A stretch of DNA of 60,637 nt, counting the filler, from Hausera hauseri (lineage: Eukaryota), in assembly GCA_046269625.1 (NCBI GenBank). It is 11 parts of 11 records of this genome, joined end to end, with 100 filler letters (N's around TTAATTAATTAA, not from the genome) between each part and the next. Parts side by side here need not be neighbours in the genome. Positions count along the whole stretch, not along the records: positions 1 to 8,603 come from JBJURY010585444.1; 10 more parts are not named here. The stretch is one strand, 5' to 3'. The notes below the pieces were generated by a model that was not told where the DNA came from, searched no databases, and saw only the letters and a list, made by a program, of their open reading frames with translations. A program made the position numbers and the translations under genes. Position 1 is the first letter of the stretch. Each line of letters begins with the position of its first letter. Shown in pieces: positions 1-33,098 of the stretch.

Positions 1-1637
1 GATCTTTGTTTCTCTTTTCTTTCTCCTTCCTTACTTCTTTTCTTAAATAAGTAGTCAAAAACGGATGTTTTCCTTTTAGTCGTTTTTCCGCTTTCGGTTT
101 CTAGTTTCTGAGGAATTTCGGGTATCTTAAATAAATAATCCTTTGTGGAACAGCATGTACTAGGTCTTTCTTGTATTTGCTTCTGATTTTGTACTGCTTC
201 GACTTTCAACCCTTGTATAGTTATTTGATAGTTCCACCTTGGGGTAATCTCAACACTTTTGGGTGGAGAATATGGGCGAAAATTTCTGCGATAACGTGTG
301 TTAAAATCTTGGGTTCTTGGAAAATTTAGTAGGTTCTGTACAGGATTATGGGGAACCCATTCATGTTCCAACTTCAGTCCAGCGCTTATATCTCTTAGGT
401 ACTGGGATCTTTGGCTGGCGGTCAATATTCTACTGATTTTAATATTTCCCCCGGTCATAGCTTCTATCATTAACTTAAACCGGCCTTCTGGGGTCAATAA
501 AATATGGCCTTTTCTTTCTTTATCTTTGATCTGTATTTGTTTCACGACGTATGGGTGAGATTCTATTTCTCTTATTCCAGCTAAGTATTCTATTGGTATA
601 TCTAATTTTTTCATTATTCTCTCTACTTGATACCCCACTAAGACGTATCCGTAGAAACATTGTGCCACCTCTTGTTGTACTAATTTGACGTCCTTCCCTT
701 GACTCAATTGGTCTCTTCTAATCCCAGTAACTTCCGCATGAGTTTCAAGCATTTTTTTTATTGGAGTAATAGTTTTCGAATAAATTTCGACTCCGTTTTC
801 TTCCCGGATGGATATTTCGATTGGAATATAATCTTCTTCTCCCTCTCCATAATTTACTGCTACAATTCGGATGTTGCGGTCATTTGCTACCAGCCTAAAA
901 GACTGTAGATGATTTTCTTGTTCTGGTTCTGTAGGCCTTTGTCTAAATTTTATAATAGGTAGTACGGCATGTTTTGGTTCTTCTTTGGTCGTTTCAATCA
1001 TCATTTTGACTGGCAAAGCGGCTACGCGGAATTCTAGTTCTCTATCCTTGAAGTTCTTGCTATCGAACACGAACGTACTGAATCGGCTTTGTCTTCCTTG
1101 GAAGGAATCCCATTTTTGTTCTTTCAATCGATAATATATTTCTCCGTCGGCTAGATGTACATATATTCTTTGTTTCTCGTCTGCTTGATATTGAGCGATT
1201 TGCTTAAAGGGATAGGCTCTGGCGTCTTTATCTTCCCTCCATGCGTATAGATATACTGTCCGGTTTTCCTCGGTCATTCCCTTTAGACCATTTGGGATTT
1301 CGCTGACTCTATCATACTGGACCATATTTTTTTCTTGTAATTCATTATTGATCTGTCTGTATATGGCTTTAGAATTGGGAATTCGTACGGTTACAATTTT
1401 CTGCAAAAATTTGTCGATACTAAGTCGGCTTGTAGCGTTTTGGGTATCGTTTTCGGTGTCGACTCTAATTCGGCTCGCATTCTCCCCTGCGTCGATCCTA
1501 AGTCGGCTAGAATCCATTTGCGTCTGGTTACTTACCAATCTGAAGAAAAGGAGATAAAGGTTAGTTCTAAAACAAAGGATTGTTTTGAACCAAAACCAAT
1601 TCTTTGTTTGATGACAGAATAACCTGTTCTGTAATTG
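1..1637 (-). CDS. ORF missing from the ORF track (open to the window edge, ~545 codons, first ATG at 1517): degenerate DEDDh (REX4/ISG20-like) exonuclease-domain protein
   Basis: Hand translation has no stop from 1637 to 1 and is in frame with pol. It contains RIVAVNY...IEISIREENGVEIYSKTITP...HAEVTGIRRDQLSQG...VQQEVAQCFYGYVLVG...GIREI, which follows the REX4-like pattern and aligns with ORF 38330..39691 (IPNGLKG vs IPNNLKG; TGIRRDQL vs TGIRESDL). Confidence 0.8.
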
Positions 1638-4600
1638 TCAGGTTATTTTATCATATGGATCTACAGGATTCTCTAAGTCCCTTAGTTCCCATTCCGAATT
1701 TTCATGGCGCTTAAAATAACAGTTTTTGGTGACTAATCGAAAAATCGCAATTAATATGATGAGAACAATTATTGACGATACCATGATAGATACGATTTTT
1801 AGTGTAGTTGATCCCATCGGTTCTTGTGTGGTAACTCGAGTTGTGATCTGCTCATCTATATCCTCATAAGCGTGGGATTCTGTACGAATCTCCCTTAAAG
1901 TTCGTATTGTAATGGTCTGATTTTGCTTATTTTTTGCGCATATTTGCACTATATAATTGGTTTGTGATTTTAATAAATTACATTCTGTTTGATAATTATT
2001 GCTGAATAAAGTTAACATTTGATTATTATACGTTGTCCGACAATTTATGTATATATCATAGTTTTGTTTCTCTTCCACGGAAAATACCATCTTAGACCGA
2101 TACACCGAATATTTTATAGGAATACTTCCTAGTTCTCCTTTAGGCACGCTGGTCGGCGTAATGGTTGACGTAAGGGTACTAATTTGAGTAGTTGATTTTT
2201 TTGTGGTGGTCTTTATTGAAATTTTCCAAATTTTATGTTCCGGGTAGTAAGTTCGTAGTTGTACACTTGGCTTATTCGGCTGTATTTTATACAAGTCAAA
2301 TCTTATTTTGAATTCTCGGTTTACAGGTATTTTGCAGAAAGGATTTTGCACAACTGCTCGAATAGAACAATATTCTATTTTCGGTGTCGGTCCATCTGTT
2401 GCTTCGAACATAATACTAATTTCCTGACTAAAAGTTAATCCTGTTTTAGCGTTTACTTGGATACATTGCTTGTCCTTATTCACAGAAATCCTCTGGATAT
2501 TTGCATCTAATATTTTTATATTTGGATCGGTGTTTCGGATTATCTCGTCCGTTTTTGCCTGAACCGCATCCTTTTGTTGTGGCATTTGTATTATGAGCTC
2601 GGAGGCTATATTGGCTTGAGCCCCAAACTTATAGGAATAGAATAGCTGAAAGCTATATCTATAGATTTTTCCGAATTCTAGATTACAACATCTCTTGTGA
2701 TTTCCGTATGGAAAATCGCATACACTCATTTCATCCCCATTAGTTATAAATGTTATCTGAAATCCTATGTGTCTCTGAACAGGATTGTCTGTTTTAAACC
2801 ATGCACATGGCTTTTTCCAATCCATGTCCCGTATTCTGAGTGTCTGTAAATTCTGGATATCCCTTTGTTTGGCGCTTGATTTTACCGTATGTATATATGC
2901 GGTTTTTAATGATAAAGCTAAAATTATCTGAACATATGATATCGGTCTAGTAACTATCGACGAAGTTTTCACTTCTCGTTGGCGCAAATTATAACGTTTG
3001 TTTGGTCGTATTTCGGTCTTGACGACCCTTTGTACGGATACAACCTCTTCTTTTCCGTTCTTGTTGATATATATTGTGGTCGGTGTCACTCGGATTACTT
3101 CATACGGTCCTCTACCCGTACGAGTTAGTTTCAGCGAGGTGCCTTTTTTAGCTACTGGATAATGTACATAAACCCAATTTCCTTGCTCTATATTATGCGG
3201 TTTCGCTTTCTTATCATATTGCTTCTTGAATTGCCCTTGATATTCTTGAGATAGTTCCTTAGCGATCTCCCAACACCTTTTTAATCGCATTTGTAACACC
3301 TCTGCAAAATTCTGCTCTAAATCTTCCGGACTAACTGTGTATGGCGTCATTCCTAAGTCCGTAGGCAACACGGCTTTACGTCCATACATCATAAACAGTG
3401 GTGTAAATTTCGTTTCTGGATATGGCGTGGTATTAATTGCAAATTGAGTTCCTTCTAAAAATTCGTCCCAATCCTTTTGGTCCTTAGCCACTACTGTTGA
3501 CAATATACGCATGACGGTAGCATTCATTCGCTCGACCATCTCGTTGCATTGGGGATGATATGCGGTAGTCGTTAATCGTTCGATTTCAAATATCTTAGTG
3601 ATTTTTTCAAATAATTCACTGGTAAAATTTCTTCCTCTATCAGTTAGTATCTGATCTGGTGGTCCGTAACGGCAAATAATTCTTCTTACAACGGCTTCTG
3701 CCAAGGTTTCGGCCTTTTGATCTATCAATGCGATCAATTCAACAAAGTGAGTTAGGCGATCAATACATGTTAAGATATACTTATTGTTCTTGTGAGTTGC
3801 AGGAAGAGGTCCTACGATATCCATTGATATGGTCTGCATGGGCCTATCGGGTACGTTTATTGGTTTTAATTCGGCCATGTAGTTCTTCGTCTTTTTCTGT
3901 TTAGTTACACATACTTTGCAAGCATTTACCCAATTTTTTACGTCGATGTAAATACTAGGCCAAAAGTATTTATTCATTATTCTTTCTAACGTTTTCTTCC
4001 AGGACATATGTCCGGCTAAGTATGAATCATGTTCGGACATTAGTACTTCGGTTCGTAAACTTTTTGGAATAACTATCAGCTTCTTTCCTTTTCGTTCGTA
4101 ATATAAGATGTCTTTTTCGCTTCCGTCATTTATGACGAGATATTTATGTCCGTATCTGTGTAAATGTTTCCTTAACTGTCGCGCTTTTGGTATGATTTTC
4201 TTTGTAGCAAATTCTATAATTTGCGGAATAACTTTGTCGTTTCTTTGTTCCCCTGAGATCCTGATTGCTTTATGTGTCGTTAATGCGCGTTGACGGTCTA
4301 TTATTTCCTCGAGTTGACCTTTCTTCATTACAGTGATTGCGCTTACTTTAGTCTTTAATCTCGATAGTGCGTCAGCGTCGACATGTTTATTTCCTGGCTT
4401 ATACTGGAATTCAATATTATATCTGGAAATTTCTTCAATCCATCTATTAAGTCTGCACGTCGGGTTATTGGCTCGACCCTTTAAGGTCGTAACGGCTTTA
4501 TGGTCAGTTACAATTATGATCTTCTGCCCGTAAACATAAACGTTAAAATGTCGAAGTGCTTCTTTTACTGCTAGAGTCTCTAATTCCGTAACGGAATAGT

Positions 4601-5198
4601 TTTTCTCAGCTTTCTTCAAAGAACGTCCGCCATAAGCAATTGGATGTTCTAATTCTTCATCTTCTCTTTTCTGCGCTAATTCGTATCCGATACCTTCTTT
4701 ACTGGCGTCTGTCTTGATTATAAATGGTAACTTAAAATCTGGGTAGCGTAAGACGGGTTCGCTTGTTAATATTTTCTTCATTTCATCAAAAGCTTTCTGC
4801 TCAACCTCTGTCCATTTCCATTTAATCCCTTTTTTAAGCAGACGATAAAGAGGCGCATTGATTTTTGAATTATCCGGTACATAGGTTGCATAGTACCCGC
4901 AAAGCCCTAACCAGTGTCTTAGTTCTTTCTGGTTTTGTGGTTCCATGCAGTCCGATATTTTATTCAATAATGATTTATCTGGTTTTGATCCCCCTTCTCC
5001 AACTATATGTCCTAAGTAGGATACGGCATTTTGAGCCCATTTGCATTTCTTCGGATTTAGTTTTAGCCCGGCCTGTTCCAGTCTAATTAGTGTGTGCTCA
5101 ATATCTCTTAAGTGTTCCTCTTCAGTTCTCGACGCTATCATTACGTCATCCAGATACGCAAAAGCGTGATCCAATCCCATTAGCATTTTATTTATCAT
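1638..5198 (-). CDS. pol: Pol C-terminal part (RT core, RNase H, integrase) fused to a signal-peptide-like segment, three FN3-like repeats and a TM helix
   Basis: AYLDD; IIKTDAS...NYSVTELETLAV...TDHKA; HDSYLAGH...CKVC; MDIVGPLP...TDRGRNF...VERMN; GPY. Then ISYVQIILALSL (~2880-2945), Cys-containing beta repeats including LKSQTNYIVQICAKN, and TM IVSIMVSSIIVLIILIAIF (~1740-1800). Confidence 0.92.
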   Translation of the reverse strand: MINKMLMGLDHAFAYLDDVMIASRTEEEHLRDIEHTLIRLEQAGLKLNPKKCKWAQNAVSYLGHIVGEGGSKPDKSLLNKISDCMEPQNQKELRHWLGLCGYYATYVPDNSKINAPLYRLLKKGIKWKWTEVEQKAFDEMKKILTSEPVLRYPDFKLPFIIKTDASKEGIGYELAQKREDEELEHPIAYGGRSLKKAEKNYSVTELETLAVKEALRHFNVYVYGQKIIIVTDHKAVTTLKGRANNPTCRLNRWIEEISRYNIEFQYKPGNKHVDADALSRLKTKVSAITVMKKGQLEEIIDRQRALTTHKAIRISGEQRNDKVIPQIIEFATKKIIPKARQLRKHLHRYGHKYLVINDGSEKDILYYERKGKKLIVIPKSLRTEVLMSEHDSYLAGHMSWKKTLERIMNKYFWPSIYIDVKNWVNACKVCVTKQKKTKNYMAELKPINVPDRPMQTISMDIVGPLPATHKNNKYILTCIDRLTHFVELIALIDQKAETLAEAVVRRIICRYGPPDQILTDRGRNFTSELFEKITKIFEIERLTTTAYHPQCNEMVERMNATVMRILSTVVAKDQKDWDEFLEGTQFAINTTPYPETKFTPLFMMYGRKAVLPTDLGMTPYTVSPEDLEQNFAEVLQMRLKRCWEIAKELSQEYQGQFKKQYDKKAKPHNIEQGNWVYVHYPVAKKGTSLKLTRTGRGPYEVIRVTPTTIYINKNGKEEVVSVQRVVKTEIRPNKRYNLRQREVKTSSIVTRPISYVQIILALSLKTAYIHTVKSSAKQRDIQNLQTLRIRDMDWKKPCAWFKTDNPVQRHIGFQITFITNGDEMSVCDFPYGNHKRCCNLEFGKIYRYSFQLFYSYKFGAQANIASELIIQMPQQKDAVQAKTDEIIRNTDPNIKILDANIQRISVNKDKQCIQVNAKTGLTFSQEISIMFEATDGPTPKIEYCSIRAVVQNPFCKIPVNREFKIRFDLYKIQPNKPSVQLRTYYPEHKIWKISIKTTTKKSTTQISTLTSTITPTSVPKGELGSIPIKYSVYRSKMVFSVEEKQNYDIYINCRTTYNNQMLTLFSNNYQTECNLLKSQTNYIVQICAKNKQNQTITIRTLREIRTESHAYEDIDEQITTRVTTQEPMGSTTLKIVSIMVSSIIVLIILIAIFRLVTKNCYFKRHENSEWELRDLENPVDPYDKIT

Positions 5199-5216
5199 TC
5201 TGGTAAATATGGCTGG

Positions 5217-6509
5217 TCAGGTGGTAATACCAAACGGCATGACGTTAAACTCATAAACACCGTCATGTGTCTTGAATTCCGTTTTATAGCGATCTTTGTC
5301 CTCTATTTTCACTTGCCAATATCCGGATTGTAGGTCCAGAGTAGTAAACCATTTCGCTCCTGAGAGTCTGTCTAAGGCTTCCTTCACTGATGGTAAAGGA
5401 AAACAATCTTTCATCATAAGATTATTTAGAGCTCTGTAGTCGATACAAAATCGGTGTTTCGTAGTGCCTTTCTTTTTAACCATAAGAATGGGCGAGTACC
5501 ACGATCGATAACTGGGTCTAATTATGTCCGCCTTCAGCATCCGTTCGACTTCCTTTGTTATCTCGGGTTTTAATGAATGTGGTGGAGGGTACCATTTCGG
5601 CATTTTCTGATCTTCTAAATCTATTTCTTCATTTGAACCAGGCTTCTTCTTGAGCGGGATGGTTAATTTTAACGCTTTTGCTCTACCAATATCTTCTTCA
5701 TCCTGAGCAATAATCGATTTATAGCGGCATAATAGTTCATAAAATTGGCAATAAGACTCAGGTGAAAACTTGGTATCGACGTGTGGCGGAAACTCAGCAC
5801 ATTTATAAGGTTTTTCTTCTATAGTTATCGACGCTACTCTATATGTATCGCCCAGAGTGGTGTAAGCATGGAGTTTAGTGGGAGTCTGTGCATTGTTCGC
5901 TATTCGGATCGGTACTCGACCGGAGTGTACTCTCGTAAGTACATTACTAAGTGTTATATTAGGATTTAACGTTTCCTTTGGTTCGAAATACACTGGTTGG
6001 TCGTCATCTTGTTGGATTTGCGCGTAAATTATTATTTCCGTTCTTGGTGGGATATTCTCGTCTACCGGTATCCATACTTCTCCAAGTTTCCTATCCTTAG
6101 CGTTTTTAATACCTCTTTTTGATCTAATTTCGATTAACTTCCCTGTTTGTAAGTCAATCGCTATATTTGGTAGCCTTTTTAATAAATCGCATCCTAGGAC
6201 GACATCGTCAGTTAAATGTTCCATAATTGCAAATTCGTGTCGAAAAGTTTGTCCAACTAATTGGATTTCCGGGTTCCATTTAAACATTGGTTTTGACATC
6301 TGACCGAAAGCTCCTGTACCACCCGGATCTTTTATAGATTGCGGGTATAAGTGTCCTCTTAGCGTTTGAGGTATTGAATCATTTTTGATGTAAGATATCT
6401 CGGATCCTGTATCGATTAGTGCATAAACTTCCCAATCCTCAATAATAATTTGGCGAACGGTCTTCCTTCGATCACTGTTCCAAAGCAGTTTGATGCTGTC
6501 TTTGGACAT
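5217..6509 (-). CDS. pol: Pol N-terminal part: aspartic protease, spacer, RT N-terminus; separated from the rest of pol by a premature TGA
   Basis: ALIDTGSEIS...VVLGCDLL; SPILMVKKK...RFCIDYRALN...LDLQSGYWQV...MPFG. The junction reads FGITT*PAIFTRM where the sister element has FGLKNGPPTFQR, consistent with a GGA>TGA nonsense mutation. Confidence 0.92.
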   Translation of the reverse strand: MSKDSIKLLWNSDRRKTVRQIIIEDWEVYALIDTGSEISYIKNDSIPQTLRGHLYPQSIKDPGGTGAFGQMSKPMFKWNPEIQLVGQTFRHEFAIMEHLTDDVVLGCDLLKRLPNIAIDLQTGKLIEIRSKRGIKNAKDRKLGEVWIPVDENIPPRTEIIIYAQIQQDDDQPVYFEPKETLNPNITLSNVLTRVHSGRVPIRIANNAQTPTKLHAYTTLGDTYRVASITIEEKPYKCAEFPPHVDTKFSPESYCQFYELLCRYKSIIAQDEEDIGRAKALKLTIPLKKKPGSNEEIDLEDQKMPKWYPPPHSLKPEITKEVERMLKADIIRPSYRSWYSPILMVKKKGTTKHRFCIDYRALNNLMMKDCFPLPSVKEALDRLSGAKWFTTLDLQSGYWQVKIEDKDRYKTEFKTHDGVYEFNVMPFGITT

Positions 6510-8603
6510 CTAGTCACCGATATTTTGTGCCCGTTTATTGTTACTTCTGGGGCGGATACTGTTTTTCGATAACTGTCTTAAGTCTCCGTTTGGATATAAT
6601 TCATTATTTTCTACGTGCAATTCTTCCCTTTCATGAGTACTAATTAGAGGTTCCCTATTGTTAGTATGTAGTTCAGTATGCTGAAAGGTTTTAAATCTTG
6701 GGTTATCCCAAACTGTTGATCTAGTTTCAATATTCTTTGCTTCTCTTGGTGAGTATATCATCTTAGGATCCTCCGTAGATTGGCGGTAACACATTTTACG
6801 TAAAATTCCATATCGTTCCGTTCCTTCATAAGGGTCTTCTACATTAATTGTTCTTTTATAAATTTCTGTCTGATACGAGCTCATGGACCGTTTGTCACAA
6901 TCGTCATAGAATGGAGCTGTAGGAGGTAGCATGGGCAATGGCGCTTTAACGACAGAGTACACCTTATGCCTATTTATTTCCGACAATGCTTCTCCTCCCT
7001 TAGGCTCATCATCATCTGAATTATTCCTTCGTATAACGGTTTTTGCAAATTTTTGTTTCCGTAAAAATATCGGTCTTCCTTTACGTTTACGATTGTAGTA
7101 ATCTACGTGGCGTTCCACGTCCGATTTCCATCTACTCTGTTCGTATGCTTTCAGAAATTTTCCACAAGGCGTTATGATCGCTGTCAATATTTTACAAGAA
7201 AATCCAGTTAGTGTAAAAATTTCGTATCCATTTATTACAGCTTGGATGACTGCCTTAATCATTTGGATTAGAAAGTATATCGCCAAAAATCCTGATGCTG
7301 CCTGTCCGAATATCAAAACTCTTCCCCAAATTTTGTAGAGTATTTCTGTTCTTACTCTCTGATAGTGATTTACGCCAAGTAATGATTCCCATTTAGCTTG
7401 ATATCTGGTGTCGTCTACTACAGACGCCATCGCTTGATTTAGCTCATGTGTTCGTTGTCGTGGGAAAGCAAGGAATTGTCTGAAAGCCTCGATTTCTTTT
7501 GGCCTGTATATGCCTTTCGATGAGGTGTCCTGAAATTTGTCGTCTGTAATCCCTTTTGCTAGGTTCGTTCCCGTCAGTTTGTTGGGAGCGGCGGTAATGC
7601 CTCCATTAGGTAGACTAACCCAGTCGGTTTCGCTACGTCTAAATATGGGCTCTCCCAAGCTTGCTTTACAATCTTTAAGAATGATTGGTCGTGTCGCATT
7701 ATCTAATAACACTCTCGTCAATGGCGTAGCCAATCTTGGAGTATTTTGATAAATGACAGGAAGCTCTTGGATGCAACGTTTTTCTTCTACGTTGATGGGT
7801 ACTTCCCTCTTTTCGCATTCATAGGTTAGCAACACTTCGCCCGTAACTCGACCGAAGATTCCTTCTCTCATAGGAATGATCGGAGAGGCTAATTCCGGGT
7901 TTGCATATATGAGAGCCGTTTTAGTTCTCATAATTTCGGTATCCAGTTTGCAGTCATTCGTAATCATTTTGTTATATAATTCAGTTATTCCGACCTGTCC
8001 TTTATAATAGAAGTAATCGTCTTTGTTTTTCAGACAATCTTCAATCCGAATATCTTGCGTTTCGAGTTTGTAAGTTTTCACATTTATCTCTGTTTCAGCT
8101 ACAAAGAACGCTTCATAGTTTGTAGCGAACATTACTACATCGCAGCAAGTCATCATTTCTTTCTTTATAAATTTTAATCCATGCGGGTCTGAAATTAATA
8201 TAGTCGGTGTAGGATGTTCCGATACATCTTCGCGTGTTCTCGAGTTAGTCTCCGATTTGTCTACATATCGTTTTCCGGTGGTTTCATTAAACTTTAATTC
8301 TTTAATTTTAATAAAATTACAATTTCTCCCAGAAAGAGTTTCCCATATTACGATCGAGCTTCTAAAACCACATGTTCCGTCTTGTATATGAAATTTCTGG
8401 TTCTCGGTGTATAATTTTGTGACACTATGGAACATTACTTTCTGTGGTCAAATTTCTGCTTCATAAAAATCCACAACCACGACATTTGATTCTAATCCTT
8501 TTCCCGTATCGTATTCTGCTCCATTACAATGTCCGCTATGCATATCCAGTCTTCCGGCTACTACTTTATATGTGCTGATTATTTTTCCTGGTTGCATCTC
8601 TAG
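6510..8603 (-). CDS. env: Chuvirus (Jingchuvirales)-like envelope glycoprotein, C-terminal part, with a long cytoplasmic tail
   Basis: The motif series typical of chu-like G is present in order: LYNKMITNDCKLD, GEVLLTYEC, CIQELPV, PLTRVL, KGIYRPKEIEAFRQFLAFP, IWGRVLIFGQAASGFLAIYFLIQMIKAVIQAVINGY. The frame extends from 8435 to the contig end across one TGA at 8448 (Arg in the second copy). Confidence 0.85.
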
Positions 8604-8703
8604 NNNNNNNNNNNNNNNNNNNNNNNNNNNNNNNNNNNNNNNNNNNNTTAATTAATTAANNNNNNNNNNNNNNNNNNNNNNNNNNNNNNNNNNNNNNNNN
8701 NNN
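8604..8703. other. Artificial contig linker N44-TTAATTAATTAA-N44 (also at 13311-13410, 20855-20954, 25680-25779, 32179-32278, 36492-36591, 41642-41741, 46955-47054, 51322-51421, 56324-56423)
   Basis: Ten identical 100-nt blocks; the central 12-mer places stop codons in all six frames. Confidence 0.98.
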
Positions 8704-9200: not shown

Positions 9201-12002
9201 ACCATTATCGATTGACAGATGTTCAACGAAATTCAAAAATTAAATTAAAGTGAAAGTAGAAAAGCGACACATTTTAAAATACACCGCATTTCATGTCATT
9301 AAATAAAATAAATTGACAAAAGTTCATTCTGAGTAATTATTTGTTATTTCTATCAAAAACAAATTGATGTTATGACGAATTGAGACACTTTATGTATAAC
9401 TGCTTTATGCGCATCAGTACGTTTTGTTTTAATGTTACGCGAACGAATAATAAAATTATTACGAGAAGTTTTGAATTTTTTTTTGCTAATTTTTAAAACT
9501 TTTGATTGTTGTTCATGAAATGATCTATATTTATTCAGAAATGTTCAATTCAATTAATACGTCACGTCGTTGGTAATTGACAAGAAGAGAAAAGAAAATG
9601 TTTTTGAAATATGATAATTATAAACAAAAACCAAACAAATTTGTTGAAATTAAGAACATTAAGAAAGTAATGCTATCCAGAAACAAATAATTCCCATGTT
9701 GGATAGGTTTGTATTTGTGCCATGATGTTCAATATCTTTTCAATCCTTATCCAAATAAAAGATAGTCAAGATTTGACATGCAACGTTTGACACCAAATGG
9801 TTTTATATGTAAAGTTGCCAAGCGTCAATTAGATTTGGAGAAAGTAAATATTCCAATCAGACTTAGAATCTATATAGAAGTTAAGCTAAAAGCAACATTT
9901 AAAAAAGATGAACTACAAGAAATCATTGAATTTGACATTGAGTCAATGACCTAACTGTGGTGCTATTTTTATGCGAACAACAAATTTAAACTTCCTTCAC
10001 TCACAATCCTCCTATTCGATTATTCAGTTAGTAGACAGTTCCCTGCATGGCAAAAATAGGAATTTACTGACGAACTTTTCAAAGACCTGTTTTTACTTTT
10101 ACCAAAATGTGACAGATTTAACTTCTGCAATTCTGTACCTCTCGAAATGCTAACCAAAAACTTTAACTTCATTGTATGACTGTGAACTATTATGCTTTAC
10201 GTAAAAATATCCACAGTATTATGATTAAGCTGATTAATCCTGTTGAATATAACACTTTACTCTGATCACAAATAAATATTTACAAGTTGCCAAATACAGT
10301 GAATTTGTTTTGGAAAGATTGCAATGAAAAAAAATGTAGAGTAAAAATTCTGAACGGTAGGATTGATGATTATTCTCTTTAGCTTAACTTTCAAATATAT
10401 GCGTATGTATATAAATATATATAGTCTCAATTAAAATTGTTTATCGTTTGAACGAGTAAATGGGATTGAAATCGATGCTCTTTTGTTTTTGATCTGTGGA
10501 CAGACGACTAACAAATAGAGGAGTAAACATATTTTGTGACCGATAGGTCGAATCAGCTCTCTAACACGGATTTTGGATGAAACAACGAATTTAACTGTTT
10601 AATATTGCAAAGTACTTTGGTTTCAAATAAAACGACAATTAGGTTGAAATTCTCAACTGAACAAAAAATCTTAACAGCAACGACAGACAATTTCTGAATG
10701 ATAAAACAAGATCGAAAATACAATAAATGGAATTAACGACAAAACAAAAAACTTTCAACTTCTCAACGATCCTTTTACTTGATTGTATCACGTCTGTATT
10801 GTTTTTAATCCGACTAAATGTTTGTAGCTTTGCAGATTATTTTGACAAGTCACTTCCTATCGACGAGTTTTCTTTTTCTTCTCTTTTTTGTTACTGTTAC
10901 TGAAACCGTATGTAAACGTTGTATCTTCTCCTTTTATTTTAAACAAAAACTTCTAGAAATAGTTTTTTCTTAACTGTGCAACCATCGAGCCGGTTGGGTC
11001 GGTTACTCAATTTCCACGGCACTTATGTAATGTGTATTTACAAAAGTAATTAAGTTCAGATCTACAATTGCTTGTTGCTTATAAAAGTTTAATTTGAAGT
11101 TCGAAAGATTTTGAATTGTGACCAATGGATGCGGCAGACGGAACAAAGTTAAAACAAGTTAGGATACTGTCATGCATACTGCGCCGATGACAAGCGTAAA
11201 AATGAGCAACCTAAGTTGAGCGAAAAAATGATGAAGGAAAAAATTTAATTATTCAATTTTGTTTAGTCCTCGTGATTTCAATTTTTATTATTTTGGGAGT
11301 TGATGTTTGTTGGCTGCCTGGACGGTAGCTGGCAAAATCCAGGAAGCAAGGCGAGAACGGGAAAAAACGCACCAGCCTAGGACGGTCCACGCCAGTCATT
11401 CTGTTGAAAGGAAAGTCGTGTCCTCAACCGCGGCACTACACCAACTATAAGAGTTTTATTTCGATTGGTACATAGTTTTCTGCCACACACTTCAGATCCA
11501 GATAGGATCCAATTCGTTCAACGTAGTTTCCTTTCCTGAGAAGACTGGAGATTCATCCGACTGGGGATTGAAGACCAACTCTCGAATTTCTGCTTTTTCT
11601 TTGAGCTCTTGTTTCTTTAATTAAGTTTTGTTTGACGATTTCGTCTGTAATCATCGTTGTTCCGACATTATTCAGATAATAATCATCTTTGGAAAAAGCA
11701 GTAAAGATCATCGACTTTGTTTGATCGACTAAATCACCAATAGGAACTGGATTGTTCAGTAGAATCGACTGTTTAACATGCACAAATGTATCGGCATTTT
11801 CAATTAAAATATCGTTGGCGTAACCAAATAATTCATGTTGAAAGATCAGATAGGACGTCTGAATAAATGCGGAAAATTGTCCTTTCTTGCTGATGATCGG
11901 CATTCCTAATAAACTGGTTTTCCTTTTTCTTTTGTACAAATTTTAATTTTTGTTTTCAAAAATCTTTGTCCAAAATTATTTTTCTGCTTTCACGAACTCC
12001 CA

Positions 12003-12710
12003 TAATTTAATTAAAATGTTTGATGCAACAATTTAAATGCTCTGTGAAGAAAAAGTCGGAAACCGCAGGCAGCCACAACAGCCCATACGAAACCAAAAAG
12101 TACACAAAATTACGATGGTTTTATTTAATGAACAAATGAGTATATCAAAGTCAGATGTTACACGCAACTTTACACAAACTATTTTATATTCGGATAATAT
12201 TTCAGTTGAATGGCAGAGGAATTGCTCATTATTTCGAGTTTGATATTGAAATTAGTAAATCAAAGTAGTACATTTTCCAGTTCATATTTTGTAAGCCATT
12301 TATGAAGAAAGTGAATCGTTATAATAAGTAACTTACTTAGATACAGAAACGAATTTACAACTTTGTCTTATTTGTTTCAATATCAAACTCGAAATAACGT
12401 CATAATTTTGTACATATTCGTTTCATATTGGAGAATTACTTATGCCAGAAGTGCCGATAACACGACAATTATTAACCGGAACTAAAAAGGAAATCAGCGT
12501 AACCATGACAATTTTCAATGAAATCTGTGCTTAGAAGTAAACTAGTGCCCTTACAAGCTGAATGATCTGTCACAATGACACCATCATACATCACCACAGA
12601 ATCAATTTAAGGTGATTAATTAATTAATCACCTTAATTTAATTAAAATGTTTGATGCAACAATTTAAATGCTCTGTGAAGAAAAATCCGGAACCGCACGC
12701 GGCCACAACA
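12003..12710. repeat. ~75-bp direct repeat (12003-12080 and 12634-12710) with a perfect 30-bp palindrome at 12607-12636
   Basis: taatttaattaaaatgtttgatgcaacaatttaaatgctctgtgaagaaaaa occurs twice; ttaaggtgattaattaattaatcaccttaa is its own reverse complement. Confidence 0.85.
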
Positions 12711-13410: not shown

Positions 13411-13990
13411 AGTGCCTTGGCAACCATATCCAAGGGCACCTCCACCTTGAGCAATTCCATATCGGTACTGAACCGTGTGTACTACCTACCAGTACTTTCC
13501 CCGGATCGATATTATCAATTTTTACTTTATAGCGAAAAGGTTTATGCGGGTTTTCCCTCTGTTAAGAATTATTCGAAAACCAATCGATATATTTAAATTC
13601 TAACTGCACATTGGCATAGTCCATCATGTGTGCATTCGATTGCACCCAGTGTCGTACCCTAATCATCAATATTGGGACTATCGGAAATCCGATATTATTG
13701 ATTTTTGCATACTTGCACATGTGCTGCACACTTGCACAGTGCGCCAATCGATGCATCTCGATGTGCCCTATCCATTTGCACAAAGTGCAGATCCATTCGA
13801 TCAATACTACACAGTGCAGCGATCGATTTGTGAAAAGTGCAAAAATGTTCATAGCAATGATGCCTAACGGCACCGTTGCTAGGCACTCTATGAGTCCATA
13901 GTGCACCGGGTGCATTATCGATAGGCACATGTGCCATATCGATTCGCACACCCTCGGGGTGGGGCAGAACCGCCATATTCATACTACTTG
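13411..13990. repeat. TGCA/TCGA-rich repeat family; truncates the second glycoprotein copy
   Basis: Its reverse complement matches 41742-42330 (e.g. gcaaaaatcaataatatcggatttccgata...gtgcagttagaattta). Confidence 0.85.
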
Positions 13991-15500
13991 CATTGGAGTA
14001 GAAAAACGAGAAATTGTCTAAATTCCTCTACTTCTTTCGGTCGGTAAATACCCTTTGCAGGAGTATCTTTAAACTTATTATCAGTTATTCCTTTTATTAA
14101 GTTTGTTCCGGTTAACTTGGTGGGCGGAGTAATTATACCACCGTTTGGTAAACTTACCCAATGGGTTTCGCTACGTCTAAACATCGGTTCTCCTTAACTG
14201 GTCTTACAGTCCTTTAGAATTGTAGGTTGGGCGGAGTTTGCTAGTAATACTCTAGTAATTGGCATCACTAATTTCCGTGTGTCCTGATATATTATTGGAA
14301 GTTTTTGGATATATCTCTTCTCCTCCACATCCTTTTTCTCGCATTTATATGTCAGTAGGACTGCTCCGGTCACCCGACCAAAAGCGCCTTCCTTCATCGG
14401 AATTATTGTTGATGCTAGCTTGGGATTTCCGTAAATTAAAGCAAATTTGGTTCTCATGACTTCTAAGTCTAGTTTGCAATCGTTCATTATCATCTTATGG
14501 TATAAGTCAGTAATTCTGGCCTGTCCTTTGTAGTAGAAATAATCATCTCTATTTTTCAGATAATCCTCAATTCGAATATCCTGAATCTCAAGCTTAAACG
14601 TTCTGGCATTTATCTCCGTCTTAGCTACAAAAAATGTTTCGTAATTAGTAGCATACATTACCACATCACATCTAGTGAGCACATCTTTCTTTACGAACTT
14701 TAGCCCGTAAGTATCGGAAATTAGTATGGTAGGCGTAAGCTGCTCCGCTACATCTTCTCGCGTTTTCGAGTTAGTGTCCGTACTACCTATATAACGTCTC
14801 CCTGTCGTTTCACGGAACTTAAGTTCTTTAATTCTAATAAAATTGCAGTCAGTTTTGGTTGGGGATTCTAAAATCACTACGGAACTTCTGAAAGCGCAAG
14901 TGCCGTCCTGAATGTGACACTTGTAGTTTTCCGTATAGAGCTTGGTAACACTATGGAATATTAGTTTTTGTGGGCGCATTTCGGTTTCATGGAAACCCAC
15001 AACCACTACGTTCGACTCTAACCCTTTTTAGTGTCGTATTCTGTGACGTTACAGTGTCCCGTATGCATATCCAGTCTTCCCTCTGCTACTTTACATACTC
15101 TGATTATTTTTCCTTGTTGCATTTTCAGTTCCATATTGTCCCATTTTATTCTTCCGATCTCTCTGCCCTGCTTACAATGCTGACGTTCCAAGTTCATTGG
15201 AATTGGCGGCGTTGCTGCCTTTATTATTAATGAATGTCCATGTATTAACCCACAATGAAAGATACTACGAGATCGTCGCAACATACATTCTATTCCATCT
15301 AATGCGACTAGTTCACGTTGTTGATACAACACATAATTCTTCTCTTTTGTCTCCAATTTGTGTGGCCTTGCATCTTCACACATTTCTAGGTCCATCAGTG
15401 AATATTTTTGGCCAAGCTTAAATTTGTCACAGTCATATATTGTGACTGCTCCCATTTGTCTTACTAACAGCATCACAGTCAGAAGATTAATTAGCCAATT
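13984..15500 (-). pseudogene. env: Second, decayed copy of the chuvirus-like glycoprotein (N-terminus and ectodomain)
   Basis: Signal-peptide-like WLINLLTVMLLVRQMGA, then VTIYDC...YSLMDLEMC...ECMLRRSRSIFHCG..H. The remainder aligns residue by residue with 6510-8603 (FHSVTKLYTEN, PTILISD, KGIYRPKE). Frameshifted near 15018 and 14190. Confidence 0.88.
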
Positions 15501-15551
15501 CTACTTGTTTCCCCGATTATTTCCGGCTAGGTTTCGTATCATGTCTTCGAA

Positions 15552-18500
15552 TCAATTATTTCCAAGGGAGGATCCATTTTGATGCTTTTCTTTTTCGAAT
15601 AATTTAGACCAATTTATTTCTCGGGGTAGTTTCCTGGCAGATCTCCACGCGAAACTAGTGACTTTGTTAAATTCATTTTCCCAAGCTGGATTTGTTTTAA
15701 TTGTTAAATACAGTAGCACTTTTCTTAACTCTTCTATGGTATCCTCTACCATAATCTTTTCGATCACCGATTCGTCGCTTAAGGTGCTTCTCGATAATTT
15801 ACAGCAGAAGTTTTTTATTGTTCTGGCTGCATTTAATATAGATCTCTTTTTTTATCTAGTATTTCGTCACACAGACTAGACTGGTCCACTATGCGTATTA
15901 GATTTTCATAAGTTCATTCAACTCCTCGTTTTCCGCACTAAAGGTTGGTATCAACATTTGCCTCAATTCCCTAATCAAATCTCCATTATAATTAACTTCT
16001 TTACGTATTTTTCGCAGCCTACCTATAGTACGTTTCTGTCTCGCGATAACTGGTGGGATCTCACTGGTGGGTACTAAATTCTTGTCATATTGTTCTTTGT
16101 CTTCGTCGGTCTGCAAAAACTCAAAGTATATCGCTGCATCTCAAACTCCCATGATCCGTTCTCTCATTGCTCCGTCTTCGCTTTCCTTGTGGCCTCTTCT
16201 TTTGTTTCGTCAGTAGTTATCGTCACCATGACACGATCGGTTTTTTCTGGGATAATCCCGATTTCCGTTAGTTGCTCCAGGTCGTCTAATATTCTACCTC
16301 GAAAAGAAAGTCTATAACTTGGCTCATTGGTATAACCATTACTCTTTAACCGCTGTACTACATCTCTCAGTGATGAAGGGGTAGTGAGTTTGCATTCTTT
16401 CTCGTTCATCCAGTCTGACGTAATTTTTACTTTAATTGTCTCTTCGGGTCTTGTCCTTAATATTTTGCCATACTCTTATATCAAGAGTTTCGGCACAACG
16501 TCATAAACCGTACCTTCACTGGATAATTTGGTCAGGGTAGGAACTTACTGTCTTAACTGATTTTCGGTCAGGTTCACATTAATTAATTTAATTAAATCGC
16601 TTTCGGTGTGTGTCAAGTTCAGAAGCATTCCCACATTGGATCTCTGGTCCGACGGGCAAGTCTCCGTTTCACACAACTGCACTGGGGTTTTCGGATTCTC
16701 GGAGACTACTGCACTCAGATACACATCCCATTCATTTTCATTGTCGGGCAGTCCGAAATCAATTTCCAACGTCTCTATTGGCTGGGCTACGTTTACGTTT
16801 TTAATTGCTTCGCTTAGTTCGTGCAGCATTGATTGTATTTTAATCATTTGCGTCGTTCGGAAACAGCGTCTGTTTCCGGAAGTTTGGCTTAATACTGTTA
16901 ACAACTGACATAATTCTTCGGTTGTTATCAGTCCATTTTCCTAATAATTGGTTAGTTCGGAGGCTACGTCTCTTTGCCATCTTTGCACAAATTGTGACTT
17001 ATCAGCCTTTTCTGCTTCCATGAGAGCATAATTGTTTTTGTAGACTTCGAGCTCCTTGGCTAGTTCGTCTAACCTCACCTCTCTCTGTTTAGTCCTAATA
17101 CAGGTTTCTTTGACCTGGCGTATCTGGAGTAATAATCGTCTTATTTTCTCCTCACTGATTTCTGCCATTTCTACCATTAGTAACGCTAGCTCATACATTT
17201 AATTAATCGCTTTCGAGTCCGGGTCGATAGCATCTAGCAATATCTTCACAAACTTGACTTCCGCGAAGCTGAGATGATGGTCGTTTCTTACTCTTGTTAG
17301 TTCGGTATGACACCTTTGATCCGTTCCGATCATCCATTCTTGTGGCCGGTGTAAGAACTTTATCGCTCCTTCTATAGTCAATCGGTGGTATGGGAAGATG
17401 TCTAAAATTTCAAGATCTCTAGTTGAGATTTCCTCGATAGATTTAGTGGTCAATTTTTGGATTCCTTCTAGGCAGACATTTCATAATCCCGGGTAGAAAC
17501 TACAAGTCATTTTCCGTTTATCCGTAAAGTTTCTTTCTTCGATAATTATATATATATCTTTCAATATCGTCGTCTCTTGTTTTCTTTTCATAAAGTTCAA
17601 TTGGCATAATGTATTAAATGGGGTCCTACTATCTATTTCCGCTCTCATTGTATCCAGATTTCGTGAATCTTCTTCTAATTGTTTTCTTACTGTAGGCTTA
17701 CTTTTTGGGAAGTCTTTCATACAGTCTTCAACTAATTTACTCAGTCTCGTCATTACTTGAGACTATTCGTCTAGCTGATTAGCGATATTCGACTTCTCCA
17801 ATATTGTTTTGTTCAGCATTTTGTATGCGTCTTCTAACTCATCATCCGGGCCTTTGATGAAACAAATGGTCTGGTATGCGTAGTTGAATTTATCCTTATA
17901 CTCATAGGGTTTAAGGATGCACGCCTTAATTATGTTCTGTGTTTCGTCATTGTCCAATTGCATGATTCATTTTCTCAAACTGCATATTTGTGACCTTTTT
18001 TCGGTTTCAATCTTAACTCGATTTTCCAGGCTCGTATATTGCTTCGATACGGTAGAGGTAATTTTAATTATTTGTATTAATGGCGGGATATCCATTGCGT
18101 TTATACCCAACATTTTTAGATCCGTTTCATTTTGTTCTTTGACCGGTTTTTCTTTGAGTCACCCTACTATGTCGAATCTAATTTCATTCATGATGCGCTT
18201 CAGGTTACGCGTTACCCTTTTTAATTTTGGATTTTCCTCTAATGTAGTCAGTAGCCCTTGGGCCTTTTTATTCTAGCTCCAACATCCTCAATATGTTTGT
18301 CCTATACCTTGGGAATTCTTACTCCGCTTTTTATCCACATTTCTAATTCGCATTTCCATTTCTCTAATAATTCTGGGGACACTTGTTCAGGTTGCTCTAG
18401 GTCCATAGCTTCGCTTAGTTTTCCTTCGTTGTATAGCTTTATTTTTTGTATAATTTTTCTACAAACTGTTTCTCTTTACCAGAAATGTCTGTCTGTTTGC

Positions 18501-18856
18501 TCATTTCTTTGAGTTTTTCTAGGTTCTGTTGCACTACATCTGGGTTGAGGCAATTAATCCTCATTCTCTTTAATTCATCGGCGTTTTTCCACAAGCGTCT
18601 GATTTTACACTTTTTATGATCGGACTTCTCACTTTGTTCGGTCTCTTCTTCGCTAGTAGGCAATGGACATATAATTTATTTCGTTTACAGATCCCGCTAC
18701 TTCTTCGATTCTGATGGGCGTAGCTGGGTTAATTTCCGGAGTGTTTAAAGTAAACTCTGTATCGCTTTCTAAGGCGATTCCTGCTTCTCCCGCTCTATCT
18801 AATTTTTCTTTTGTCATCGGAGATCGCGAATGATTCTTCCGTTTTCTTTTTAACAA
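15552..18856 (-). pseudogene. Fragmented accessory coding region between gag and the glycoprotein (charged, coiled-coil-like segments; function unknown)
   Basis: Chain of same-strand K/E/R-rich ORF pieces, several abutting in frame (17199/17198; 15552..15767 is in frame with G). Confidence 0.65.
16164..16440 (-). CDS. Ubiquitin-like (beta-grasp) domain within the accessory region
   Basis: IKVKITSDWMNEKECKLTTPSSLRDVVQRLKSNGYTNEPSYRLSFRGRILDDLEQLTEIGI aligns without gaps to ubiquitin residues 1-61 (RLSFRGRILDD vs RLIFAGKQLED). No C-terminal GG. Confidence 0.7.
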
Positions 18857-18932
18857 TGGCCTACAACCCTATCCTTCGTAATTTTTAGTATTAGCGGTTC
18901 AATGAATTCTTTCTCCGTCATTTTTTATCGTT

Positions 18933-20250
18933 CTATTTACTGTTTCCATCATATATTTCAGTCTTTTTCAATTCTTCCGTTTCCTTATAAATCGTAGGAA
19001 CATTCCTTTTACGTGCCATGTCAGTCAGCTTTGGAGGGGCGATAGAATGTTTATATTCAGTTTCTGGTTCACGAAGGCCGGGGTATACTTCTAGTAATCG
19101 TAACTTGTGCTCATACTCATTCCTAGCCATCAAAACTTTGGGGTCATTAGTATCCGGTTGGGCTTTTAAGAAACGTCTTAAACCCTGTATATCGATAATC
19201 ATACCCGTGTCTTTACGGTTGCAATAAATTGCTTCTAAATTCTCATTCCTAATCACATTAATTTTACTAGGCTCAACAAACGAAACACTTCGTGTATTTG
19301 GACAGGACCTCACCACGTGTCCCTCTTGTCCACATGTGTAACAGATTAAGTTACCATTTCTACCAACCCTTTGTCGACCGTCTTCGTTTACTGGGGATTT
19401 CGGTCGACTTGCATTCCTATTGTAGTTGATTCGACTGAACTGGTCTAGAGTTCTCATTCTGACGATTATCATAACGTCGATTATCATTCTGCCGATTTCC
19501 ATTGTTAAAATTTCTGGCACCGTCTAAACGTCTATCCAAATTATAATTTGGCCTATTGGATGAACTGTTCCGGTCATTGTCAATATTTCGGTTACCATAC
19601 CGATTACTTCTATAATCGTTGCTACTGTTCTAATTTCTATTACCATAATTTCTGTTATTTTGCATGTCATTTATATCATTTCGATTTTTGTCATTACATT
19701 CATGCCGATCATTATTTCTGTCGCTTTTGTCATTGCTTATAGTATATCTGTCCAGTGCCATTTCTAAATCTTGGGCAAGCTGTAAGGTTTTATCCAAATT
19801 CTCTGGTCTTGCTAAAATCAACTGTTTCACTATGTCTCTTGACCAAATGTCATTTATTAATTGTGTCATCATCATGACGTCTAAGTCTGGAGGAGTTGCC
19901 TTTTCTGCGGCTTCGCGTCCTGCTTCGTTTTTAGTCTTGGCTATATTTGCTATTTTTAACGTGTTTACATAACTGTTTGCGAGTGTCTTCAGTGCAAATG
20001 CAAACTGGATTATTTATTCGCCCTTCTGTTGCATCCTATTCTGGAAGGCCATGAGTTTTTGTTGATGGGTTACTGTCGGCAATAATTTTCGGTTCAAGGC
20101 TCCTACCAAGGGGGACGAAGATTTTTTCTCGTCATCAGTGAGTTCACTATAGGCATCAGCGACCAAATTCTTCATGTTATATAGTTGATAACATTTCAAC
20201 TATGGAAGTTGCTCTGGTGCAACTTATTCCGTGGGTTCACTACGGTGGTT
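18933..20250 (-). pseudogene. gag: Gag with CCHC zinc knuckle, frameshifted
   Basis: FQNRMQQKGE, LILARPENLDKTLQLAQDLE, an N/R/D-rich linker, and CYTCGQEGHVVRSC. Confidence 0.85.
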
Positions 20251-20954: not shown

Positions 20955-23900
20955 AAAGAATCCTGGCTTAATTGAACGAAGTGACTTTGTGCAGACCTAA
21001 TTGTTTCGTCAGTTGGTGTGTTGTCCAAATCGGCGAGTTAAAAAAGTGCGCTAATTATGGTACCAAAAAGGGCTTCAGCGGGTGCGCAACCGGTGGTGGT
21101 AGACGGAGTGTTGCGCCACCCGAGTAAAACAAAATGGAGGATGGTTGTCCAATTCTTATGAGTTTAGGCCAGGATTTTTAACGAGATCTTGCGAGAGCGA
21201 TGAAAGTGTTCCAATAAACCGTTCGACTGGGGATGATATGGAATTGTGTGTATGTGGTTTATGCCTAGTCGATTAACTAAAGATTTGAATAAATTCGATT
21301 CATATTGAGGACCTTGGTCTGTAATTATTTAGCGGGTGAACGAAACCGGCTAATCCAAATTCTTATGAATGCATCGGCTATGGAATCTATATTAATGAAA
21401 CGCAAAGGAACAGCTTCAGGCCAACGAGGCGCGCGGTCCATCATTGTTAAAATGAATTGGTAGCCGTTATCGGAAGGTAATGGACCAACGTTATCTATGT
21501 GAACTGACTCAAAACGAAATGTACAGGGGAAATGAAATAATGGTGGCTTACGATATTTAGCTAACTTGAACTTTTGGCAAGCTGCGCATTGCCTAACCCA
21601 GCTCTGTACATCAGACCTCATCGATGGCCATGTTACGTGGCGTTTGAGAAGGCGGAATGTAGCCTTGTAACCTGAGTGACGCAAAGAATAACTTGTTGAA
21701 ATGCAGTTTGTTGAAGAGGAGGTGCCAAAGTTGGCAAATGTTGTCCAGGTATCGAAGTATCCATGGATATTCCATCGATGATTTGCACGGATTTATATTG
21801 TTTCAGAATTTCATTGCCAGGTGGATTTTTAATTAACTGGTCCTTTGAGAAAATTGGCGTGACGCTAATTGCACCGACTGACAGTGACAGGAAGTCAGCT
21901 ATTAAATTGTCTGTTCCTGAAATATGGCAAATTTTAAAGTTGAATGTTGAAAGATATGATATATGGAGTTCTTGTTACACCGATGGCTATTTCATATTCA
22001 TTACGTGAACGAGCGGTTTGTGGTCAGTTTGTATAGTGAAGGAACGACAGATAAACAGGTGTGAAAAATGTTTCAGCGCTAAAACAATAGCCCAGAGTTT
22101 TCTATCGAAGGTAGAATAGCGGCGTTCTTGTTGCTGTAGCTTGCGTGAAAAGAACTCTAACGGCTCGTTTGTACTTTGAGATATTTGATGATGAACCGCT
22201 CCTACTGCTGCAGTTGATGCGTCGGTTGTTAAAATGAGATCAGCATCAGGTTTTGGGTAGGCCAAAATTTTGACAATTTTGAGCTTGTTGCGAAGTTCCT
22301 CGAACTGGTTAAGAAGTTCTGCTGTCCAGTATATTAGCTTTTACTTTGGCCCTGCTCCTAGTTGAGCGAAAGCAGCAGTTAACTGGCTACAGTGCGGGAC
22401 GTATTTATGGACAAAATGTAGAGTCTCAAGGACACTACGCATATCAGTAGTGGTTTTTGGTAGTTCGATATTTTGGAGTTCATGGATTCTATCAGGTTCT
22501 GGACTGCGGCCGTCAGGTGTGATGACGTGGCCAAGGAAATTTACCTTTTTCTGAAAGAAGGAAAATTTAGAAAATTTCACTTGCATATTGTAGTTGTGCA
22601 AGCGTTCGAAAACTAGTCTGAAATGTTCTTCGTGTTGTTTTAGTGATGCTGATGCGACTAGTATGTCGTCAATGTATGGATATGAAAATGATAAACCTGA
22701 TAGAACTGAATCGACGTGCCGTTGGAAAGTTTGTGCCGCGTTCTGTAAACCCAACGGCATAAATGCGTACTCAAAAAGACCAAACGGTGTTATTATGGCC
22801 ATTTTTGGGATGTCTTCTAATGCTACAGGTATTTGGTGGTAGGCTTTTTTGAGATTTATGGTTGAATAAATCGTAGTCTCGTGTAAAGAGTGCAATATAC
22901 CATTAATCAGCGGTAGAGGATAAGCGTCCATGGTTGTGACATTGTTAAGTTGTCGATAGTCGCCGCATGGACGGAATGTGCCATCTTTCGTTGGAACGAC
23001 GTGAAATGATGATGCACAAGGTGATTTAGAGCGCTTTATGATTTGAGCTTGCTCAAGTGCAAAGAATTCTGCTTGTACTGCCTGTCGACGGCGCGGTGAA
23101 AGTGGACGAAGTTTCTGTCTAACGGGCCTAAGGTTTTCTGTGACGATATGATGAAATGTCGTGTTAGCCCGTCGAAATGTTGGGTCTTTTTTAATTGTAT
23201 GGAAACAAGATTTGGTTAAATATTGCTGCATTTCTTGGCTGAGCATTGTAAAGGATGTTGTTGTCGCGGCAGTAGTTTGATTAGAGTTAGTGTGTGAAAT
23301 GCTAGAGATTGAGTTGCCTAAATCATCCTTGTGAACGCTTTTTGTTCCTCTATTACCGGACTGCATCAAAAAATGTTTGATTATTTATATGGGTATTAAT
23401 GACGTTCTTATTTGCCTTAGTTGAAGGTTCTTTTAATATCGATTTTATAAGTGCGATACATTGCGTGACTTGTTGGTTATTTGAAAAGGTGGGTTTTGTT
23501 GGACTGCTCTTGATGATCTGACGTTGTCTACAATCTACAAGGAGGTTGTAGAAAGATAGGAAATCAGATCCAAGTAATGACGATTGTGTGTCGGCAACGA
23601 TGAATGTCCAATTGAAAATGTCGGGGAATGGTTGTAACGTGAATGAAACTTTGGATGTGCCGAAAATGCGTAAAGCTTGGCCGTTTGCTGTGTACAATTT
23701 GATGTTATACGGTGAGATAGATAGTGTTTTGATGGATGGCGGTAATAAGGAAAGCAGCAGTCCCTGAGTCAATGAGGAAATTGATTGGCTGATTTGGATT
23801 GGATGTTAAGGAGGCCTTTAATATGAAGGCAGCCTTTGTGCGGCTGTAGCAGTGACGAGGGTAGCCTTTGCCAGCGTGCGCCGGAACATCAGGCAGCTTT

Positions 23901-32178: not shown

Positions 32179-32278
32179 NNNNNNNNNNNNNNNNNNNNNN
32201 NNNNNNNNNNNNNNNNNNNNNNTTAATTAATTAANNNNNNNNNNNNNNNNNNNNNNNNNNNNNNNNNNNNNNNNNNNN

Positions 32279-32745: not shown

Positions 32746-33098
32746 TGTAGAAAATAATTCCAATGTAATAAGTGAATCCAATGAGAAAGGATAAATTCCG
32801 ACGAGAAGAGAATAGACGAGAAACAATAATTTATTCATTTCAAAACTAAAAATTTTTTGTCAATATATTAATCAATTCATATTTTTTATATCTTATATAC
32901 ATACTATATACACATATTGTATACAACGCTAGCAACGTCTTTAAGGATCTATCCACTAGTAATTATCATTTCATTCCAAATAAAAAATCGTCCAAAATGT
33001 TCATGTTTCCGAAAAATGTGTCGTATAGTCACATGGTGGGGACAGTTCTCTCACCGATCCACTAACCCCTCCAGTGCGACCACACCTTAGGCACTACA
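32746..33098 (-). repeat. 3' LTR (353 bp) with a polypurine tract at ~33099-33110
   Basis: Termini TGTAG...CTACA; GGGGGGGGTGA precedes it on the minus strand; lies downstream of the integrase. Confidence 0.8.

Follow-up and report, generated by a model that had tools for sequence, protein, structure and literature searches.

Decayed copies of a probable Burro-like Ty3/gypsy retroelement in Hausera hauseri carry a chuvirus-like glycoprotein ahead of pol and a predicted FN3 membrane protein after integrase

Retroelements that encode an envelope glycoprotein ahead of pol have been described in several invertebrate groups. In the planarian element Burro, the env product matches mononegaviral fusion proteins and lies in frame between gag and pol, behind a Bcl-2-like domain, an arrangement that its describers call the first such case; the same text reports decaying Burro fragments in another planarian (Arkhipova and Yushenova 2019, PMC6431247). 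GAG-ENV-POL elements with a gB-type envelope have since been described in Nematoda, Bryozoa and Platyhelminthes in a study that also cites Sacco 2022 (Chary and Hayashi, eLife 2026, PMC13524379). The text of that study calls the cell-entry mechanism of gB-carrying retroelements unknown, and treats it as open because herpes gB needs partner glycoproteins. The gag-env-pol order that a preliminary description of the present locus had singled out as atypical is hence unusual but already published (PMC6431247, PMC13524379), and the DNA analyzed here provides one more decayed example of a known gene order. What is added is a conserved membrane protein, predicted to be of FN3 type and encoded after integrase, together with a set of motifs in the cytoplasmic tail of the glycoprotein.

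The window, that is, the whole 60,637-nucleotide stretch of H. hauseri DNA that was analyzed, is not contiguous DNA, a point that the preliminary description had missed. It contains ten identical 100-nt linkers (each a 12-nt palindrome flanked by N runs) starting at positions 8604, 13311, 20855, 25680, 32179, 36492, 41642, 46955, 51322 and 56324, which divide it into 11 contigs of 4.2-8.6 kb each. Joins of this kind can create false gene neighborhoods, and the neighborhoods that span linkers are artefacts. One unstranded linker (8604..8703) cuts the first copy of the element, and position 8603, the upper bound of the feature originally described, is a contig end. The gag-env-pol order in the window is consequently a composite of two decayed copies, with env-pol on contig 1, gag-env on contig 3 (13411-20854) and no single contig showing the whole order. 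The proposed location of the glycoprotein (G) between gag and pol holds insofar as env precedes pol on contig 1, but copy 1 is without gag and copy 2, on contig 3, is without pol. Elsewhere in the window, three contigs (20955-36491) contain broken gypsy elements that belong to a different clade and are 64-65% alike in DNA, with no env family among the frames scanned. A broken type B DNA polymerase (PF03175) at 43528-46281 on the plus strand is presumably Polinton- or adintovirus-like, and degraded short pieces of host genes, some beside gypsy elements, correspond to a Ufd2 core (26496-27002), MutS V (47746-48678) and dynein heavy chain (48679-50688).

On contig 1, a minus-strand frame running from 8603 to 3 is interrupted by four stops only in 2867 codons: at 8448-8450 within G, at 6510-6512 between G and the protease, at 5217-5219 within the reverse transcriptase (RT), and at 1638-1640 at the end of an extension of pol. 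The first segment of this frame encodes the envelope glycoprotein of copy 1 (6510..8603, minus strand), which the preliminary description had called a chuvirus-like fusion glycoprotein while proposing a profile search as a check. In that search, residues 33-440 of the 645-aa frame matched the Pfam family Monjiviricetes_fusion (PF24664, E 2.1e-44), which is gB-type according to the literature. The protein is cut N-terminally, with its first ~130-145 residues lying beyond the contig end at 8603, and has a membrane region near 7230-7320 followed by a cytoplasmic tail of ~240 aa. It does directly precede a DTGS protease (6402-6413) on the same strand, as originally reported: the two share one frame, with no untranslated region and a single stop codon (6510-6512) between them. 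The pol region (2960..6509, minus strand), in the same frame as G, presents the domain order that defines Ty3/gypsy elements (Metaviridae), namely protease, RT (YLDD motif at 5145-5156), RNase H, and integrase with an H2C2 zinc domain and a GPY motif (3102-3110). Neither an LTR pair nor a primer site was found in a search of the window, where all fragments are cut by contig ends, and the window contains no tRNA genes. The stop codon between G and protease could be programmed, yet decay is the more likely explanation, because two other disabling stops occur in the same frame and relatives read through this point. Searches that return single proteins do, however, favor fused forms. As they stand, the copies in the window are not translatable.

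Copy 2 of the glycoprotein (~13990..15500, minus strand) opens with a hydrophobic signal-like stretch, covers the N-terminal half of the ectodomain and ends, broken, before the membrane segment. It matches the Monjiviricetes_fusion family in each of two frames, with E 1.2e-13 and 2.2e-13. A shift of frame near 15021-15027 and a stop at 14194-14196 interrupt it, and there are many more breaks in the gag region. Its location after gag, its signal-like start and its being in frame with the preceding piece had all been recognized at the outset, and all three hold, but two stops intervene between it and that upstream piece of 99 codons (15851-15555). The gag region (15501..20175, minus strand) comprises one CCHC zinc knuckle (19302-19343) and then ~3.8 kb of broken coding sequence belonging to no recognized family. 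A two-sequence Bcl-2-like profile detected no Bcl-2-like domain ahead of G in copy 2, in a heavily broken region where its sensitivity is low, and comparison of this region with the corresponding regions of relatives gave no match except the zinc knuckle. A repeat of unknown kind, ~80% conserved, follows the end of copy 2 (13482-13857) and recurs twice on contig 8 (41742-42330).

The two glycoprotein copies, described initially as diverged but alignable, encode the same amino acid at 272 of 374 aligned codons (72.7% amino acid identity). Between them, pS is 0.85 and pN is 0.139, for a pN/pS of 0.16 (bootstrap 0.13-0.20); 63 of 92 fourfold sites differ, and synonymous sites are saturated, so that dS is not estimable. 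Neutral divergence between the copies, which had been named as evidence against a maintained glycoprotein, is absent. Given this ratio, purifying selection acted on G while it diverged, and the decay of both copies came later; the copies represent two subfamilies rather than a recent duplication.

A homologue search with the window G over 1.84 billion representatives yielded 534 matches at E <= 0.001, 16 of them at <= 1e-30, with the polyprotein relatives, ~30% identical to the window G, filling the top ranks before all stand-alone G proteins. In 11 of the 14 top-ranked relatives scanned, a single ORF carries G and then an aspartyl protease; no protease was seen in P0007, P0012 and P0017. The metagenome locus L001 encodes, in a 5'-open frame of 3426 aa, G, protease(s), RT, RNase H, integrase and a signal-ectodomain-TM unit, followed by a stop and an exonuclease ORF, which is the order found on contig 1. 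A further search with the G of L001 returned 14 additional long proteins, 13 of which have G before the protease; the remaining one, P0165, is BEL-type and has G last, after pol. In nine of 11 newly found relatives, the ORF that encodes G also encodes a zinc knuckle ahead of it. These relatives are partly non-independent, as they include the close pairs P0005/P0152, P0004/P0157 and P0158/P0159. The uninterrupted forms, L001 and the long proteins running from zinc knuckle through G to protease, show that the gag-env-pol order is real in the clade, though composite in the window. A Bcl-2-like domain precedes G in P0007 (E 0.00096) and, weakly, in P0003 (E 0.2), and ankyrin repeats are present in P0152 (4844 aa). 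Two to seven aspartyl-protease-like domains, some past the integrase, occur along single polyproteins in P0152, P0009, P0004 and L001, and in P0088 (1000 aa) a chu-like G is fused behind immunoglobulin domains and a membrane segment. A word-based homologue search with the window G at near length retained none of 4765 candidates, and a search of viral contigs none of 472 candidate stretches.

In a G tree of 61 rows (61 of 103 usable rows), the window G groups with the polyprotein G rows (support 98) and, among these, joins a subgroup that includes the Bcl-2 bearers (96). In a 24-row tree built with a simpler model, the split from stand-alone G is maintained (95) but the window G is basal in the polyprotein group; given the differing positions, the broad grouping with polyprotein G appears to be the sole safe conclusion from these trees. 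The window RT groups with Burro-like relatives (support 92-100), and for the elements present in both trees the RT and G topologies are in broad agreement, the window element being a long branch in each. This agreement and the pN/pS between copies bear out the earlier suggestion that G has been inherited with the element. G is a long-held envelope of a Burro-like gypsy lineage, not a fresh chuvirus capture. The assignment to class III fusogens is less firm: the best profile link from G to herpes gB has E 0.009 over 75 columns, herpesvirus gB accounts for all but three of the 37 matches listed, and these matches, the family assignment and the literature (PMC13524379) point only weakly to a class III protein.

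It could be argued that G is instead a stand-alone endogenous chuvirus fragment, or a recent capture, that lies next to a gypsy pol by chance. The best Pfam family for G consists of Monjiviricetes glycoproteins, Jingchuvirales G fragments are often found beside broken LTR elements (PMC10084718), and a stop codon does separate G from the protease. Against this, G and pol share a frame with no spacer, the two G copies carry the mark of purifying selection, the nearest relatives of the window G are G-Pol polyproteins, the window and polyprotein G split from stand-alone G with support of 95-98, and L001 shows the same G-pol order. On these sequence comparisons, the chance-neighbor reading is largely refuted and we regard it as very improbable. 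The locus is most likely a decayed envelope-carrying Ty3/gypsy retroelement related to the Burro-like lineage. Other identities were considered and set aside. An endogenous viral element of Chuviridae or Jingchuvirales was rejected on the grouping of G with polyprotein G and on the absence of any L or N family in 30 frames scanned. Env is in frame and directly before the protease, with one stop codon between, as in Burro proper, but the element was not filed there, no Bcl-2-like domain having been found ahead of G in copy 2. Troyka is without an envelope and without a GPY/F motif (PMC12440569).

The contig 1 frame runs on for ~440 codons past the integrase GPY motif, and neither the membrane protein encoded there nor the exonuclease-like ORF that follows it was part of the original inventory of the element. 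This in-frame extension of pol (1638..2951, minus strand) comprises a weak signal-like stretch (2910-2942) that falls below the hydropathy threshold used, a Cys-bearing ectodomain with FN3-type motifs at 2661-2690 and 1953-1982, a Thr-rich stalk, a TM helix (1740-1796) and a short tail. A homologous unit (28% over 100 aa) is found in a third related fragment, on contig 7 (38330..41641, minus strand), where an integrase end is followed by a signal-ectodomain-TM unit (39692-41281) and a 453-aa exonuclease-like ORF (38330-39691); a fourth fragment, on contig 10 (51422..54845, minus strand), contains an open pol of the same clade that is cut by a linker just past the integrase. Among the 14 relatives extending >150 aa past the integrase, 12 present a signal-like stretch and a later membrane stretch in this region, P0016 being ambiguous and P0163 having none. 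A Cys-x2-Leu-x3-Thr-x-Tyr motif recurs in 10 of the 14 tails, including six of the nine not used to define it, and has three matches outside post-integrase units too. An eight-row profile built without window sequence ranked the contig 7 frame first of 258 (E 6.9e-6) and matched the contig 1 ectodomain weakly (domain E 0.012-0.05).

The membrane-proximal domain of this unit is predicted to adopt a seven-stranded FN3 fold, from a model of L001 only, to which the window copies are tied by alignment and profile. In that model, based on a 10-row alignment, the domain has seven strands (pLDDT ~70-92) and the rest of the ectodomain has pLDDT <50. The PDB matches listed for the domain consist of FN3 domains and FN3-derived binders such as monobodies (E 3e-4 to 4e-3, TM-score up to 0.72), with 11 matches at E <= 0.001, and its matches to viral structures include several FN3 proteins. 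A single-sequence model of the contig 7 unit was unusable (pLDDT 38.8), and none of the 10 rows of the post-integrase alignment matched Pfam fn3. Against PDB sequences, a first tail profile gave one unrelated match and a second gave 13, the best a pilin (E 0.034), followed by several FN3 domains (E 0.08-1.3). Atlas neighbors of both window units are cytokine-receptor-like FN3 proteins (0.83-0.87), at lead level only. In L001, an extra signal-FN3-like-TM unit lies between two protease domains (~4748-5330), besides the terminal one. No mention of a post-integrase FN3 protein in gypsy or Burro elements was found in the literature searched, figures, Repbase and subscription papers being outside its scope.

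The pol extension is followed on contig 1 by an open frame of 545 aa (3..1637, minus strand), which runs off the window edge and encodes an exonuclease domain that is RNase T/REX-like but degenerate. An exonuclease-like ORF after the polyprotein is thus seen in three elements, contig 1, contig 7 and L001, where ORF2 (10617-12107) matches PF00929 with E 1.4e-5. The first DEDDh catalytic motif is intact in L001 ORF2 and unrecognizable in both window ORFs (3-1637 and 38330-39691); since these frames are open despite the degenerate motif, they possibly encode a maintained pseudo-nuclease. An exonuclease-like profile found nothing significant in the proteins of the relatives, P0017 reaching only E 0.21.

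Late domains that bind TSG101 and ALIX have the forms P(S/T)AP and YPX(1-3)L, respectively (PMC6874086). The G tail of copy 1 contains a PTAP (6912-6923) and a LYPxxxL (6579-6599) on the minus strand, both with putative late-domain function. A hydrophobic-Tyr-Pro pattern occurs in the G-protease linker of 10 of 13 polyproteins, versus 1.3 expected, in a count where two rows form one cluster and the pattern was picked after some rows had been seen; in eight of 11 later polyproteins, it lies 32-63 residues ahead of the protease motif. Of 88 other G tails, which may include envelopes of other retroelements, 42 contain the same pattern, against 3.5 expected from shuffling and 2.2 from ectodomain windows; in these stand-alone rows it sits near the C-terminus, at a median of 17 residues from the end. 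Being present in the other G tails, hydrophobic-Tyr-Pro is a family-wide trait of G and a marker of where G naturally ends. Nothing relevant to late domains in chuvirus G was encountered among the literature matches listed, again with figures, Repbase and subscription papers outside the scope. Late-domain-like motifs in about half of the chu-like G tails give rise to a testable hypothesis on the budding of these viruses and elements.

How the tail motifs and the FN3 protein function is a matter on which more than one reading must be weighed. YPxL also fits the generic tyrosine sorting pattern (Tyr-x-x-hydrophobic), and tyrosine motifs are frequent in envelope tails, so the G tail motifs may be endocytic or sorting signals and not ESCRT late domains; we consider this the less likely reading, as there is a strong preference for Pro after Tyr and for a hydrophobic residue before it, and P(T/S)AP is likewise enriched (13 of 88 G tails versus 0.7 expected). 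For the FN3 protein, a role in entry as attachment partner of the fusogen is a tentative proposal, and a conserved second membrane protein at the pol terminus offers a concrete candidate partner for a gB-type fusogen. A serious competitor, to which we give somewhat less than even weight, has the FN3 protein as an accessory host-modulating factor (a receptor decoy, or an immune or superinfection block) with no part in entry, like other host-like Burro cargo. Burro elements do carry Bcl-2, BIR, MATH, ubiquitin-like and ankyrin cargo (PMC6431247); the FN3 ectodomain is quick to diverge and its number of repeats is variable; in P0164 the ectodomain is a different, small one, P0163 lacks any, and in L001 there is the additional copy between proteases; and the cytokine-receptor-like Atlas neighbors, as leads only, would fit as well. 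Fast divergence is, however, also expected of a receptor-binding protein, and 12 of 14 relatives keep the unit in this terminal place, which makes it more constant than the Bcl-2-like domain.

Taking the entry role and the late-domain function together, we put forward a speculative model, doubtful as a whole, in which Burro-like elements would be invertebrate retroviruses with a two-component envelope derived from one polyprotein. Its fusogen, of gB type, would lie between Gag and Pol, and a captured receptor-binding protein of FN3 type, encoded after integrase, would serve it as gD/gH serve herpes gB. The budding signals would be in the fusogen tail and not in Gag, a trait that the chu-like G family as a whole would share. 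As part of our main reading of the element, hydropathy and established polyprotein biology suggest how an active copy would be made. It would produce one polyprotein threaded through the ER membrane, with Gag remaining cytosolic and an internal signal directing G to the lumen. At the G membrane segment the chain would cross back, leaving the tail and Pol in the cytosol, until another internal signal sent the FN3 ectodomain into the lumen. The protease of the element, together with signal peptidase, would free the parts, such that Gag and Pol could be tethered at the budding membrane in a fixed ratio and without splicing. The G tail would bring in ESCRT (TSG101, ALIX) through its PTAP/LYPxL-type motifs, G would perform fusion, and the FN3 protein would attach to the host or modulate it.

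Among known systems, nematode NERVs reportedly have env before pol in a metavirus, as in the window, in nematode hosts. The G of the mosquito element Anakin (Dezordi 2020, PMC7642597) and Chuviridae G belong to the same glycoprotein family as the window G, but Anakin has a BEL/Pao backbone instead of a gypsy one; they occupy a separate branch of the G tree, and in the BEL-type relative P0165 G comes after pol. Gypsy LTR elements of bdelloid rotifers likewise have an exonuclease ORF after pol, a DEDDy ORF3 (PMC5408684), whereas the window ORF is RNase T/REX-like (PF00929), with the first catalytic motif unrecognizable in either copy. The gB-type errantiviruses (PMC13524379) share with the window a Ty3/gypsy pol and an env ahead of it that is related to chuvirus G, the window env being of this chu-like/gB-type (PF24664, E 2e-44), and a Schmidtea mediterranea env row in the supplement of that study resembles the window clade by eye. 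Those elements are intact and often multi-copy, while the window copies are decayed; 'Fibronectin', 'FN3' and 'Burro' do not appear in the supplements of PMC13524379, nor 'fibronectin' and 'exonuclease' in its main text. The text on Burro in PMC6431247, its figure aside, makes no mention of a post-integrase FN3 membrane protein, an exonuclease ORF or late motifs; Burro proper is a giant of 25-30 kb with one ORF of ~4,900 aa, against window contigs of 4-9 kb with no detected Bcl-2, MATH, BIR or ankyrin domain. In Burro (GYPSM1) of S. mediterranea (PMC6431247), an env with mononegaviral fusion matches lies in frame between gag and protease, an order that the window shows only in composite, and relatives of the window element resemble Burro in their Bcl-2-like domain before env, ankyrin repeats and ORFs of 3,000-4,800 aa.
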